Shown here: positions 7,713 through 52,438 of the stretch, piece by piece
Position numbering within the stretch: position 1 is the stretch's first letter
How the letters are laid out: every line of letters starts with the position of its first letter
Assembly: GCA_050180485.1 (NCBI GenBank)
Contig: JBFXED010000006.1
Span: 42,070 to 106,069 of the forward strand
Length of the DNA: 64,000 nt
Reading direction: 5' to 3'
Source of the DNA: Alphaproteobacteria bacterium
GTDB taxonomy: Bacteria > Pseudomonadota > Alphaproteobacteria > CADEGL01
Made by a program: the position numbers and the translations under genes
Notes under the pieces: generated by a model
What the model was told of the DNA's origin: nothing
What the model saw: only the letters and a program-made list of their open reading frames with translations
Databases searched by the model: none

Positions 7713-8005
7713 GACGCCCAGGGGTAAGACGCTCCGGCCTATTCCTATGGTTCGCGCTCGGCTTTGCAGTGACAGGATGTCATCAGGCGCCGGCGGGCAC
7801 ACCCAACTTCCAGGATGGTTATCATGCCGGCTGCGACGACGCGGCCGTCGATTCGCCGGGCGCGCAGACGGGTCAGACGACGTGGATGCGCGACGAAACC
7901 CGCATCGCCGGCCAGCCCGACTACAAGGAAGGCTGGTACCAGGGATACGTCGCCTGCTATCGCAAATGGCTCGAACATCCCTCGATGTCCAACACCGGCA
8001 CATAG
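7664..8005 (+). CDS. small Cys-containing lipoprotein, paralog 7 (start uncertain)
   Basis: Lipobox VTGC, then PAGTPNFQDGYHAGCDD...DYKEGWYQGYVACY. No canonical start lies between the paralog-6 stop (7712) and the signal peptide. The nearest in-frame starts are GTG 7664 and TTG 7643, both inside paralog 6. Confidence 0.5.
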   Translation: MLSRRDGVSGDGQPGLRRPGVRRSGLFLWFALGFAVTGCHQAPAGTPNFQDGYHAGCDDAAVDSPGAQTGQTTWMRDETRIAGQPDYKEGWYQGYVACYRKWLEHPSMSNTGT

Positions 8006-49648: not shown

Positions 49649-50407
49649 ATGCGCCTCGCGGGAAAAGTCGCCGTCGTCACCGGAGCCGGCTCGGGCTTCG
49701 GCGAAGCCATCGCCCATCGCTACGCCGAGGAAGGCGCCAAGGTGATCGTCAACGACCTGAACGGCGACGCGGCCAAGCGCGTGGCCGGCGGCATCGCGCA
49801 GCAGGGCGGCCAGGCCACGGCCAACAAGGGCGACGTCACGTCATCCAAGGACGTGAAGGCGATGATCCAGGCGGCGCTCGACACTTACGGCCAACTCGAC
49901 ATCGTGGTGAACAACGCCGGCTACACCCACCGCAACCAGCCCATGCTGGACGTGGATGAGGAAACCTTCGATCGCGTCTATGCCGTGAACGTGAAGGGCA
50001 TCTATCTCGCCGCCGTTCACGCCGTGCCGGTGTTCAGGAAGCAGGGCCGCGGCGGCTGCATCATCACGACGGCATCCACCGCAGGGCTGCGCCCGCGTCC
50101 CGGCCTCACCTGGTACAACGGCAGCAAAGGCGCCGCGATCACGCTGACCAAATCCATGGCCGCGGAACTGGGCCCGGAAAAGATCCGCGTCAACTGCATC
50201 TGCCCCGTCGCGGGCGACACGCCGCTCCTCCCCATGTTCCTCGGCGAGGACACGCCCGAGCGCCGCGCGAAATTCATCGCCACCGTGCCCATGGGCCGCC
50301 TGTCAAAGCCGATGGACATCGCGAACGCGTGCCTCTACCTCGCGTCCGACGAGGCCGAGTTCATCACGGGCGTGGCGCTGGAGGTGGATGGGGGGCGGTG
50401 TATTTAG
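49649..50407 (+). CDS. SDR-family oxidoreductase
   Basis: TGAGSGFGEA, NNAG, YxxSK (YNGSKGA). 252 aa. Confidence 0.8.
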   Translation: MRLAGKVAVVTGAGSGFGEAIAHRYAEEGAKVIVNDLNGDAAKRVAGGIAQQGGQATANKGDVTSSKDVKAMIQAALDTYGQLDIVVNNAGYTHRNQPMLDVDEETFDRVYAVNVKGIYLAAVHAVPVFRKQGRGGCIITTASTAGLRPRPGLTWYNGSKGAAITLTKSMAAELGPEKIRVNCICPVAGDTPLLPMFLGEDTPERRAKFIATVPMGRLSKPMDIANACLYLASDEAEFITGVALEVDGGRCI

Positions 50408-50438
50408 AAAAACTCATAATTTTTTGGAGTGATTTTAA

Positions 50439-51323
50439 GTGAGAAAGAAAAATCCTCGGTACTTAAGATTCGGTGTTGTCGCGTTTATTGACCTACTCGG
50501 TTTTTCCTCACGTGCAGAAGCTTTGGGCACGGAAGACGATATCAAGAACCTTGAACGAGACATCAAGCGAATTCAGGCATGGTTTGATCACAAACCGTCA
50601 GATGATCTCACCAAACAAGTTCAGAAAATAACGGCAAAGTCGGTAATCGCATTTTCGGACTGTATCATTCTCTCTGTGCCATTCGAATCAGACCTTGCTC
50701 GATCTGGAGGTCATTTCGACGTAGTGATGAGCGAGCTTACAAACGTCGCGTACGCGCAAGGGCGTTGTGCAGTAAATGGAATCTTTCTTCGGGGCGGAAT
50801 TGATTATGGAATTTGGTATCGGCGTGGGGATGTTTTAATTAGCCCAGCGATGATCAAGGCTTACCATTTAGAACGAGAGGCGTGCGTTCCAATGATCGCC
50901 CTAACAGATAGCTTGCTTACATATCTGTCGGAACATCGACATCGCAAATTCTATCACAAATCTATTGATCCGATTGAGAGCACTTTTCGGAAGTTCGAAA
51001 ACTTGCCAAACGATAGCACTCAGCATTTTGTTGATTATATACCGATTTGTTTGGAGTCACTTGAAGGCTCTATTCCAAAAGAGGCCCAGGAAATCTATGC
51101 GACTTCCTCTTCGGAAGAAAAAGATCGTATGAGAAATGAGGCGTATGAGTGTGCTTGCAATGTATGGATTAGCCAACATCGCAAAGAAATCATAAAGGCG
51201 CACGAGCGAGCAACGGTCGAGTCAGTTCGAGCTAAATATGTATGGCTCGCGCGCTATCACGATGACGCTGTTTCACGCTTCTTTAAGAGACCGACGCGAG
51301 ACATGTTAATTGGCGAACTTTAG
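50439..51323 (+). CDS. horizontally acquired hypothetical protein with class-III nucleotidyl-cyclase-like N-terminal motifs (294 aa)
   Basis: GTG 50439 with GGAG 9 nt upstream. GC is about 42% against about 67% in both flanks, and the flanks are AT-rich. Motifs: VVAFIDLLGFSS (cf. F-x-D-I-x-GFT), AFSDCII, and RGGIDYGIWYRRGDVLISPAMIKAYHLERE (cf. RIGIHxGxVxxGxxG...GDTVNxASRxE). The C-terminal half is unrecognised. Confidence 0.6.
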   Translation: MRKKNPRYLRFGVVAFIDLLGFSSRAEALGTEDDIKNLERDIKRIQAWFDHKPSDDLTKQVQKITAKSVIAFSDCIILSVPFESDLARSGGHFDVVMSELTNVAYAQGRCAVNGIFLRGGIDYGIWYRRGDVLISPAMIKAYHLEREACVPMIALTDSLLTYLSEHRHRKFYHKSIDPIESTFRKFENLPNDSTQHFVDYIPICLESLEGSIPKEAQEIYATSSSEEKDRMRNEAYECACNVWISQHRKEIIKAHERATVESVRAKYVWLARYHDDAVSRFFKRPTRDMLIGEL

Positions 51324-51499
51324 TATCGGCATTTTGTTTAACTTCTCTCAGAAGTCGCTCGAATTGTTTCCAGCTTCTAAGTCAAATTTTTGTGGTTTGG
51401 TCCCCGTTGGCCCCGCCCCCACCCCCCTGCTAGGCTTCCATCCAGGCACGTATCTTGCAATTTTGGCCTGGATAACCGTCTTTCCGAGAGAGCCCAACA

Positions 51500-52438
51500 A
51501 TGGCCGAGAATAAACCGCCCCGCCCCGCGCCCCGCGCGGCCGCCGCCAAGCCGGCCCAGGCGCCGCGCCCAGCGGCCGCCGCCGCCCCGGCCCGGCCCAC
51601 CGCGCAAGCGGCTCCGGCGAACCCCGGCATCCAGCGCCCAGCGGAGCAGCGGCCCGGCCTGCCCCTCTTCTATAAAGACCCGCGCCCGCTCGCGCGCGAC
51701 CGGCACGCCAACAAAAGCCTCAAGACCGCGGCCAGCATGTCCTTCGCGGCGAATTCCAACGCCGTGCCGCTGACGCTCGAGGAATTCGGCACCGCTTCGC
51801 GCCACTATCCCATCGTCTTCAGCATGGAGAAGCCTGCCATCGCGGTTGCCGTGCTGGGTTTCCGCCGCGGCGAAAACCTGTTCATCGACGGCCAGGGCCG
51901 CTGGGCGCCCGAGTCCTATATCCCCGGTTATATCCGCCGCTATCCCTTCATCTTCATGGAGATGAAGGAGCGCAACCAATACATGCTGTGCGTGGACGAG
52001 GCCGCGAACCTGCTGGAGGACAACGGCACGCGGCCCTTGTTCGAAGGCAACCAGCCGTCGGAACTGACCAAGAAGGCGCTGGAGTTCTGCGCGGCCTATC
52101 ACCGCCAGTCGGTTCTGACGCAACGCTTCGCCGAGGCGCTCGAAGCGCACGGGCTTCTGTCCGACAAGGGCGCCAACGTCACCGTGCCCGGCGGCCAGGC
52201 CATCGCGCTGCAGGGCATCCGCCAGATCGAGCAGGACAAGTTCCGCACCCTGCCCGACAGCGTGATCCTGGAGTGGCACAAGAACGGCTTCCTGTTCGCC
52301 TGCCACGCGCACTTCATCTCACTGGGCAACTGGGCCAGCCTCGGTCAACGCCTCGGCCGCCTGTTGCGCACGGTGAAGCCGACCGTGGCGCCCGCGAAGC
52401 CGGCGGCCCGTCCCACCGCCCCCGCCGGACGCGCGTGA
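51500..52438 (+). CDS. SapC-family protein with Ala/Pro-rich N-terminal extension
   Basis: Core RHYPIVF...YIPGYIRRYPF is typical of SapC (PF07277). 312 aa. Confidence 0.7.
   Translation: MAENKPPRPAPRAAAAKPAQAPRPAAAAAPARPTAQAAPANPGIQRPAEQRPGLPLFYKDPRPLARDRHANKSLKTAASMSFAANSNAVPLTLEEFGTASRHYPIVFSMEKPAIAVAVLGFRRGENLFIDGQGRWAPESYIPGYIRRYPFIFMEMKERNQYMLCVDEAANLLEDNGTRPLFEGNQPSELTKKALEFCAAYHRQSVLTQRFAEALEAHGLLSDKGANVTVPGGQAIALQGIRQIEQDKFRTLPDSVILEWHKNGFLFACHAHFISLGNWASLGQRLGRLLRTVKPTVAPAKPAARPTAPAGRA

Follow-up and report, generated by a model that had tools for sequence, protein, structure and literature searches.

The window (the whole 64-kb stretch of DNA that was analyzed) contains, in its open reading frame list, a native SDR gene (49649..50407, plus strand; GC3, 0.893) and a native SapC-family gene (51500..52438, plus strand; PF07277 in all homologs). 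Between them lies a foreign low-GC islet of 988 bp (50408..51395, unstranded; GC, 0.437), delimited by composition profiles and by alignment to a sister locus (L028) and an empty site (L031). The islet holds a single 294-aa ORF (50439..51323, plus strand) with its own GTG start and a GGAG Shine-Dalgarno sequence 9 nt upstream (50426..50429, plus strand), both read directly in the sequence, as the initial annotation had reported. That annotation had also described a low-GC segment of about 1.1 kb in high-GC DNA, and composition and codon analyses upheld its foreign origin. The GC content of the ORF was 0.451, against 0.655 ± 0.026 in 885-bp sliding windows over the rest of the 64 kb (z = −7.8), and no other deep drop in GC was seen in the window. 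GC3 of the ORF was 0.434, compared with 0.86 to 0.91 in the four adjoining genes, and its codon choice was clearly foreign.

Alignment to L028 defined the borders. L028 and the window are identical through ...GGCGGTGTATT and then diverge at the SDR stop codon, the left breakpoint already proposed for the insert. The right border had been placed at 51500 but instead falls at about 51392-51396; the last ~105 bp upstream of sapC (51396..51499, unstranded), where GC rises, are native, GC rich, and homologous to L028 positions 7890-8000. No convincing target-site duplication or terminal inverted repeats were found at the islet borders. A 13-nt inverted pair at 50392-50404 and 51509-51521 is close to the chance level, which we estimate at roughly 0.5 such pairs. 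No sigma-70-like promoter or terminator inside the islet rose above shuffled expectation, and the 72-bp 3′ tail had no significant structure (z = −0.27). Because the islet lacks a sigma-70-like promoter, the gene is probably transcribed by read-through from the upstream operon.

The same junction differs among related genomes. In the window it carries the cyclase-fold gene described below, at L028 and L029 an E2/E1/JAB operon, and at L031 nothing. The cyclase-fold gene is thus missing from sister genomes at this locus, and a sister genome carries a different, defense-type gene cluster at the same spot. On these three occupancy states, the SDR-sapC junction is a local hotspot for accessory cargo, and entry would most likely have occurred by recombination through the conserved flanks. 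It offers a clean, small case of an accessory gene hotspot without an integrase. An integron gene cassette had been suggested by a VCH_CASS14 neighbor in the locus scan and was rejected: no attC-like inverted repeats were found in the 3′ tail, elsewhere in the window, or in L013, and L013 has no repeat array.

A structure model of the 294-aa protein (pLDDT, 96; pTM, 0.92; AlphaFold run from the single sequence gave an unusable pLDDT of 40) has a class III cyclase-type palm fold, with canonical adenylyl and guanylyl cyclases as its best structural matches. The cyclase homology domain spans about residues 9 to 200 (50463..51038, plus strand, as are all codons below). The motifs noted initially (an F-x-D-x-x-GFT-like strand, AFSDCII, and an R-x-G strand) are present and, in an alignment of 169 homologs, strongly conserved. 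D18 (50490..50492; F-I-D-L-L-G-F-S; 96%) is the putative first metal-binding Asp, and its motif aligns to FADIVGFT of Rv1625c-type cyclases in the PDB profile alignment. D74 (50658..50660; A-F-S-D-C; 99%, preceded by S73 at 95%) is the putative second and lies in the β2-β3 turn between model strands 68-72 and 75-81; both Asp residues occupy the expected structural positions. R118-G119-G120 (50790..50798; 98%, 99%, and 89%), at the start of model strand 117-129, is the counterpart of the R-x-G-x-H-x-G phosphate-binding strand. In the S135-E145 helix (SPAMIKAYHLE; 50841..50873), which corresponds to GDxVNxAxRxE of helix α4 in profile alignments to PDB cyclases, the catalytic Asn and Arg positions are taken by I139 (V/A/I in the family) and H143 (K/E/R/D). 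Of the substrate-specifying pair (Lys/Asp in adenylyl cyclases, Glu/Cys in guanylyl cyclases), the Lys is likewise absent: the position 4 residues before D74 is Leu in 65% of homologs, and K67, 7 residues before, is only 70% conserved.

The fold resemblance to class III cyclases inferred initially for the N terminus therefore stands, whereas significant sequence homology does not. Neither the 294-aa protein nor 80 other members matched PF00211, and sequence searches of Pfam, NCBIfam, PADLOC, and the PDB with the single protein, 45- and 36-member sets, and profiles returned nothing usable. The best PDB profile match (E = 0.07) was not significant, nor was hhalign against an alignment of canonical cyclase domains (probability, 1%). 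The C-terminal ~150 aa had been called unrecognizable; the C-terminal region does lie outside the cyclase domain, but it is not an unrelated 150-aa domain, since the palm fold runs to about residue 200 and the terminal helix belongs to the conserved core of the family. Residues 201 to 294 (51039..51320) form helices (214-222, 225-257, and 261-281 in the model) with conserved H247, K266, Y267, W269, Y273, and H274 (85 to 96%). Residues ~207 to 243 are confined to this long form of the family, and the K266/W269 helix is shared with a short-form sister family.

The replaced residues raise the possibility of a noncatalytic pseudo-cyclase, a sensor or regulator whose ligand would be an NTP or a nucleic acid end. 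Nucleotide-binding cyclase-like domains are known to exist, and the transition-state Asn/Arg and base-specifying Lys are indeed missing. However, conservation across highly divergent long and short forms is 96 to 99% at the two metal-binding Asp positions, at the phosphate Arg, and in the glycine loop, which is typical of retained catalysis, and a DNA-binding or output domain is absent. We consider this reading improbable.

One homology search with the 294-aa protein gave 90 homolog clusters and an identical protein in an Alphaproteobacteria metagenome-assembled genome; another gave 81 representatives at E < 1e-30 and 1,899 at E < 1e-3. A genome locus scan queried with 16 closer sequences revealed an extremely patchy distribution. 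The family has copies on 54 plasmids, some of them conjugative or mobilizable; IS elements border the copies at L004 and L006; and relatives occur in prophage accessory loci and in a PHROG family. These contexts would suit a gene that serves mobile elements rather than the host, as an addiction toxin, an anti-defense enzyme such as one able to destroy or mimic immune nucleotides, or a plasmid competition weapon. Such a role is nevertheless unlikely, to about the same degree as a pseudo-cyclase. No conserved antitoxin-like neighbor was found at 23 loci, and in the window chromosome the gene stands alone, with no mobile-element genes beside it in the ORF list. Phage carriage of the long form was also considered and rejected, as it appeared neither in 50,697 phage genomes nor in a pattern-limited scan of IMG/VR contigs. 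A literature search returned no description of this cyclase-fold family, and it matched no catalogued defense family (PADLOC 2023, PADLOC-DB v2.0.0).

No partner effector gene is present, as initially observed, and no TIR, TM, or CNB-domain effector gene recurred near the long form at 23 loci. The immediate neighbors are heterogeneous: about half of the loci have housekeeping neighbors only, and defense-type neighbors are seen at others, so that the association of the long form with defense is anecdotal. A conserved ATPase partner was considered and discarded. The 983-aa ATPase in question is limited to one module, 90 to 92% identical across Paracoccus, Phaeobacter, and Labrenzia, and matches Ppl, a defense protein in its own right (PMC13223576).

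The lack of a recurrent neighbor bears on whether the gene could provide the signal in a Pycsar-like pathway, making a cyclic mononucleotide that switches on an effector whose gene lies elsewhere in the genome or comes from a different element. Described immune cNMP cyclase clades are all genetically linked to effectors (bioRxiv 10.64898/2026.08.12.744502; PMC11224242), and when a gene moves by itself in a 1-kb islet, its receptor would usually be left behind. PycC models in PADLOC-DB v2.0.0 gave zero matches to the 294-aa protein and its relatives P0085, P0088, and P0405. The likeness to Pycsar or CBASS suggested initially thus found no support, the protein also lacking the cGAS/DncV-like Pol-beta nucleotidyltransferase fold of CBASS, and we judge a signaling role of the Pycsar type very unlikely. 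A role as a standard cAMP/cGMP cyclase in host physiology, although canonical cyclases are the best structural matches, is largely refuted by the absence of a PF00211 match in 81 members scanned, of a sensor domain, and of the canonical catalytic and specificity residues, together with the foreign composition, the absence from sister genomes at the locus, and the patchy distribution.

We favor a reading with three joint parts, which as a whole we would give an even chance: the family is an undescribed, divergent class III cyclase fold; the islet arrived recently as a self-contained module with a single gene; and its gene is a credible candidate for a new one-gene antiphage or antiplasmid system. 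D18 and D74, the β1 glycine loop, and R118 most likely bind Mg2+- or Mn2+-NTP, and catalysis is predicted to proceed by attack on the α-phosphate with release of pyrophosphate. Q107, S135, Y142, Y200, H247, K266, W269, Y273, and H274 are predicted to complete the active site in place of Asn, Arg, and Lys. Loss of these three residues in canonical cyclases greatly lowers activity, and because they are absent here, catalysis is not assured. Because no effector gene is linked at any locus, we infer that the protein plays a direct part in conflicts with phages or other mobile elements: on being triggered, it would convert or deplete nucleotides, or make a toxic nucleotide, and the infected cell would be arrested. 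The activity itself, its substrate and product, its trigger, and a defense role are thus all put forward as inferred properties.

To our knowledge, every described immune system with a cyclase fold (Pycsar, Pucsar, type III CRISPR, and Panoptes) couples an enzyme that synthesizes nucleotides to a separate effector. If our reading is correct, a cyclase-fold protein that spreads and persists as a lone 1-kb gene, has retained the part of the active site that handles metal and triphosphate, and has exchanged the remainder would imply a different immune logic, in which nucleotides are directly converted or depleted or a new product is made, and would add to the defense catalogue a family that current HMM tools miss. 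The hypothesis is cheap to test because the family is compact (294 aa, without a partner gene) and offers clear candidates for the catalytic residues to mutate.

Compared with class III cyclases (Rv1625c, mammalian AC C1/C2, and sGC), the 294-aa protein shares the palm fold but lacks the transition-state Asn and Arg, the substrate-specifying Lys, and sensor domains; it has its own conserved residues (the Q107-to-H274 set above) and adds a C-terminal helical region. Pycsar systems (PycC; PDB 7R65, 8JSZ, 8JSF, and 6YII) join a cyclase to an adjoining TM or TIR effector, unlike the 23 loci here, and the Asp pairs of two Pycsar cyclases (D102/D146 and D62/D106) are 44 residues apart (PMC11224242), against 56 in the 294-aa protein. 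GGDEF, mCpol (minimal CRISPR polymerase, Panoptes OptS), and Cas10 palm domains showed lower structural similarity, over about 110 to 120 aligned residues; the family has A-F-S-D-C and not their GG[DE]EF or GGDD motif, the protein matched no GGDEF profile, and Panoptes requires a partner effector, whereas the long form has none linked. The short-form sister family (~225 aa; phrog_23933; for example, Planococcus P0088 and Reinekea P0405), itself uncharacterized, is clearly homologous to the long form from end to end (hhalign probability, 99.8%; E = 4.7e-28). It shares the signature residues of the long form, down to the terminal K..W helix, and likewise has no Pfam domain; it lacks roughly residues 207 to 243 and lies in defense-type neighborhoods at the P0088 and P0405 loci. 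At both of these loci its translation is coupled to that of a ~355-aa ParA/CbiA-type ATPase, a partner absent from all 23 long-form loci. A more tentative extension, which we think possible but doubtful, is that the long form and the ParA-ATPase-linked short form make up a previously unrecognized superfamily of effector-free class III cyclase-fold immune enzymes. A Lys/His/Tyr/Trp cluster would replace Asn/Arg/Lys and support a noncanonical reaction (an unusual nucleotide product or NTP depletion) that itself aborts phage infection, and in the long form the helical insert (~207 to 243) would take over the regulatory role of the ATPase partner.

The cyclase-fold ORF (50439-51323) has a GC content of 0.451, against a mean of 0.655 (sd 0.026, 885-bp sliding windows) across the remaining 64 kb (z = -7.8), and the islet that carries it is the single deep trough in the GC profile of the whole window. 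Third-position GC is 0.434 in the ORF versus 0.86-0.91 in the four adjoining genes. Codon usage is clearly unlike that of the neighbors, with 5% versus 50% of Leu codons as CTG and 38% versus 88% of Ile codons as ATC. The ORF is intact and encodes 294 aa from a GTG start, with GGAG nine bases 5′ of it. No sigma-70-like promoter or terminator was detectable within the islet; since the gene is co-oriented with the flanking genes, we infer expression by read-through. The initial annotation had described a sharply bounded low-GC islet, probably foreign, whose one ORF has its own Shine-Dalgarno sequence, and these data bear it out.

The low-GC tract starts directly past the stop codon of the SDR gene on the left flank (49649-50407). 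The window and L028, a contig from a sister genome, are the same in sequence through ...GGCGGTGTATT and diverge from the SDR stop codon; homology returns at ~51392-51396, ~105 bp 5′ of the sapC ATG. The islet was therefore assigned to 50408-51395 (988 bp), in which the ORF is preceded by a 31-bp leader and followed by a 72-bp tail. The left border thus lies where it was first drawn, and the right border, first drawn at 51500, had to be moved. Flanking direct repeats had been suggested as a mark of insertion; neither a target-site duplication nor a terminal inverted repeat marks the islet, and it has no attC-like element and no structured tail. A 13-nt inverted pair (12/13 complementary) brackets the islet at 50392-50404 (SDR 3′ end) and 51509-51521 (sapC 5′ end); by a rough estimate, ~0.5 such pairs are expected by chance, and by eye the pair is weaker or missing at the junctions of L028 and L031, an empty-site contig. 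The sapC 5′ end (51512-51600) has imperfect GC-rich direct repeats and codes for a low-complexity N-terminal extension rich in Ala and Pro. Most SapC homologs cover just ~71-81% of the query, a shorter length of ~240-270 aa being common among them. Elsewhere in the window, the first ~1.1 kb of positions 1-2335 has a GC content of 0.52-0.55 versus 0.655 and is followed by a 416-aa ORF (1085-2335) with C-terminal motifs that by eye resemble a tyrosine recombinase/integrase; an integrated element may have its edge here.

For comparison of the SDR-sapC junction, SapC relatives were searched and their contigs fetched. In L031 (SapC 64% identical), the genes for acyl-CoA synthetase, SDR, SapC, MaoC dehydratase, and CoA-transferase lie in the same order as in the window, and because SDR and sapC are just 21 bp apart, the site is empty. 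The sister genomes L028 and L029 (SapC 87% identical, same gene order) carry at the junction an unlike 4.5-kb insert on the opposite strand, with a GC content of 0.47-0.56 versus 0.64-0.72. This insert (L028 3463-7890, minus strand; L028 is from GCA_026400755.1 JAPLOM010000035.1) is a six-gene operon encoding an E2 (PF26395 E2-CBASS), a 175-aa protein, a ThiF-type E1, a 303-aa JAB-containing protein, a 277-aa protein with weak matches to PDC-M48B, RTasMBL, and LmuA models, and a 222-aa unknown. Its proteins match the PADLOC CBASS-type E1-E2, E2, and JAB models, and the operon resembles ubiquitin-like conjugation defense operons; no cyclase gene accompanies it. Three occupancy states of the hotspot were sampled (window, L028/L029, and L031). 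Conservation of the cyclase-fold gene in this syntenic position across the family would have spoken against horizontal acquisition; the junction is instead variable, and the islet is foreign DNA inserted there. Since the two unrelated cargos have one left breakpoint, where a conserved gene ends, cargo swapping by recombination through the conserved flanks would fit better than site-specific integration.

Searches with the window protein, 80 other members, and family profiles against Pfam, NCBIfam, PADLOC, and PDB sequences returned nothing, and the family is missing from Pfam 2025, NCBIfam 2026, and PADLOC 2023. Homologs are rare (90 clusters at 90% identity); a representative library of 1.84 billion proteins contained 81 at E<1e-30, a number that rose to 1899 at E<1e-3. 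AlphaFold2 with a 45-sequence alignment gave a very confident model (pLDDT 96.0, pTM 0.92). The top 50 Foldseek matches of this model in the PDB were all class III adenylyl/guanylyl cyclases (best E 2.6e-6; 77 matches at E<1e-3). The predicted structure therefore has the class III cyclase fold first proposed from motifs. The C-terminal ~150 aa had been called unrecognizable; the cyclase-like domain in fact spans residues ~9 to ~200, and the terminal helix (K266/W269) recurs in a sister family. In a Kapaibacterium MAG (L027 9974-11470), a ~498-aa ORF has the homologous region as its N-terminal part and may be a cyclase-fold domain fused to a different C-terminal region.

Conservation was computed over 169 near-full-length homologs. 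Conserved positions are D18 (96%), G21 (97%), S73 (95%), D74 (99%), Q107 (97%), R118 (98%), G119 (99%), G124 (96%), S135 (96%), A141 (93%), E145 (98%), P151 (100%), Y200 (96%), H247 (96%), K266 (95%), Y267 (92%), Y273 (96%), and H274 (93%). The best seven PDB matches of a broader family profile were class III cyclases, at sub-significant E values of 0.07-0.3, with V-A-F-I-D-L-L-G-F-S aligned on V-L-F-A-D-I-V-G-F-T and S-P-A-l-v-r-A-y-r-l-E on G-D-A-V-N-V-A-S-R-M-E. hhalign against canonical AC8/AC9 domains gave the identical register, again without significance. This register and the residue conservation indicate that the family retains the two putative metal-binding Asp residues, the β1 phosphate loop, and a putative phosphate-binding Arg. 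The canonical second half-site is absent: the family has V/A/I in place of the transition-state Asn, varies among K/E/R/D where the Arg would be, and has Leu in place of the base-specifying Lys. From the alignments, the metal-binding half of the cyclase site looks to have been kept and the other half swapped for family-specific residues; K266, H247, and H274 may lie at the metal site. In validated Pycsar cyclases, as in this family, the two aspartates are constant, and specificity residues and C-terminal elaborations vary by clade (PMC11224242). Loss of the canonical residues thus makes classical cyclization less credible, yet the protein may still be catalytic. Set between the lost residues and the constant aspartates, a pseudo-enzyme acting as a sensor seems unlikely.

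The weakest matches of the first homolog search, P0085-P0090, are members of a short form of ~225 aa (279 clusters). It has no Pfam domain, and some members carry the UniRef label "Guanylate cyclase domain-containing protein." Homology between the two forms extends over their entire length (hhalign probability 99.8%, E 4.7e-28), and they have the whole signature in common, K266/W269 corresponding to short-form K199/W202; the long form has an additional helical stretch at about residues 207-243. phrog_23933, of unknown function, matches the window protein at E 2e-20 and the Planococcus short-form representative, P0088, at ~1e-41. In Planococcus and Reinekea, a ~355-aa ParA/CbiA/AAA_31-type ATPase gene lies directly 5′ of the short-form gene, its stop codon abutting or overlapping the short-form start (L035 4935-6678, L037 4934-6681). 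One locus adjoins an SLFN-type helicase and the other BstA and HigB, and the pair looks like an undescribed two-gene module in defense-type neighborhoods; in PADLOC it gave just weak P-loop matches (PDC-M28B). More distant relatives are found at the end of P2-like Burkholderia phages, next to the integrase and attP. One of them, the 314-aa GP47 of phage phiX216 (L038 4845-5789), follows these two elements directly, together with a 157-aa ORF. In P2-like Burkholderia pseudomallei phages this spot is a typical accessory-cargo position.

The long form was found at 18 loci among 185,579 species genomes in a pattern-limited scan, including Alpha- and Gammaproteobacteria, Chthoniobacterales, Nitrospirota, Desulfuromonadaceae, Geobacteraceae, Thermosulfurimonas, Acidobacteriaceae, Gracilimonas, and Kapaibacterium, a very patchy distribution. 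Gene GC is below that of the flanks at 22/23 loci, and at several (the window, L018, and L023) the gene and the low-GC tract are of similar length. A frameshift near codon 85 splits the copy in Mesorhizobium sp. YIM 152430 (L017 9980-10895), which reflects either pseudogene decay or an error in the assembly. The Bradyrhizobium japonicum homolog is preceded, on the same strand and at a distance of 253 bp, by a complete PADLOC candidate system, PDC-M21 A/B/C (L001 3966-5748; E 1e-85, 1.5e-96, and 9e-61). A 983-aa ATPase resembling Ppl, an established defense protein (PMC13223576), is encoded directly upstream of the cyclase-fold gene at three loci (L004 2990-6915, L033 3985-7882, L032 3984-7849), on a Paracoccus chromosome beside IS66 and on Phaeobacter and Labrenzia plasmids. 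These form one module, and the 90-92% identity of the ATPases across three genera indicates recent intergenus spread of a two-gene block. Other defense or mobility neighbors are IS elements, IS110 among them, with an Mrr-type nuclease; a HATPase_c_3/PAPS-reductase cluster; an AAA_21/AAA_15 ATPase, DUF3644, and a tyrosine integrase; AbiEii; and, in a batch scan, PDC-S06, PDC-S65, GmrSD, and SLOG proteins. Housekeeping neighbors are secDF/yajC, purH, PmbA/TldD, methylmalonyl-CoA mutase, and rpoA/L17. Locus by locus, defense or mobile neighbors are frequent, not universal. Homologs occur on 54 plasmids; none were found in 50,697 phage genomes or, by a pattern-limited scan, on IMG/VR contigs. A gene that serves the mobile elements themselves seems unlikely.

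Clustering of all neighbor ORFs yielded no family recurring across loci; the long form has no linked partner gene, in agreement with the initial annotation. A Pycsar-like signal generator would accordingly need an unlinked effector and is more doubtful still. An ordinary signaling cyclase, for all the fold, is very improbable beside the loss of the canonical residues. We give an even chance to the joint reading of the protein as an active enzyme that converts NTPs in a metal-dependent way and has a role in conflict with phages or other mobile elements; with no effector gene, it would act directly, either converting or depleting nucleotides or making a toxic product. No description of this family was found within the literature collection searched. 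Recent surveys of immune cNMP cyclases cover effector-linked clades only (bioRxiv 10.64898/2026.08.12.744502). The window gene is best called a candidate cyclase-fold conflict gene without an effector and without the canonical catalytic complement.
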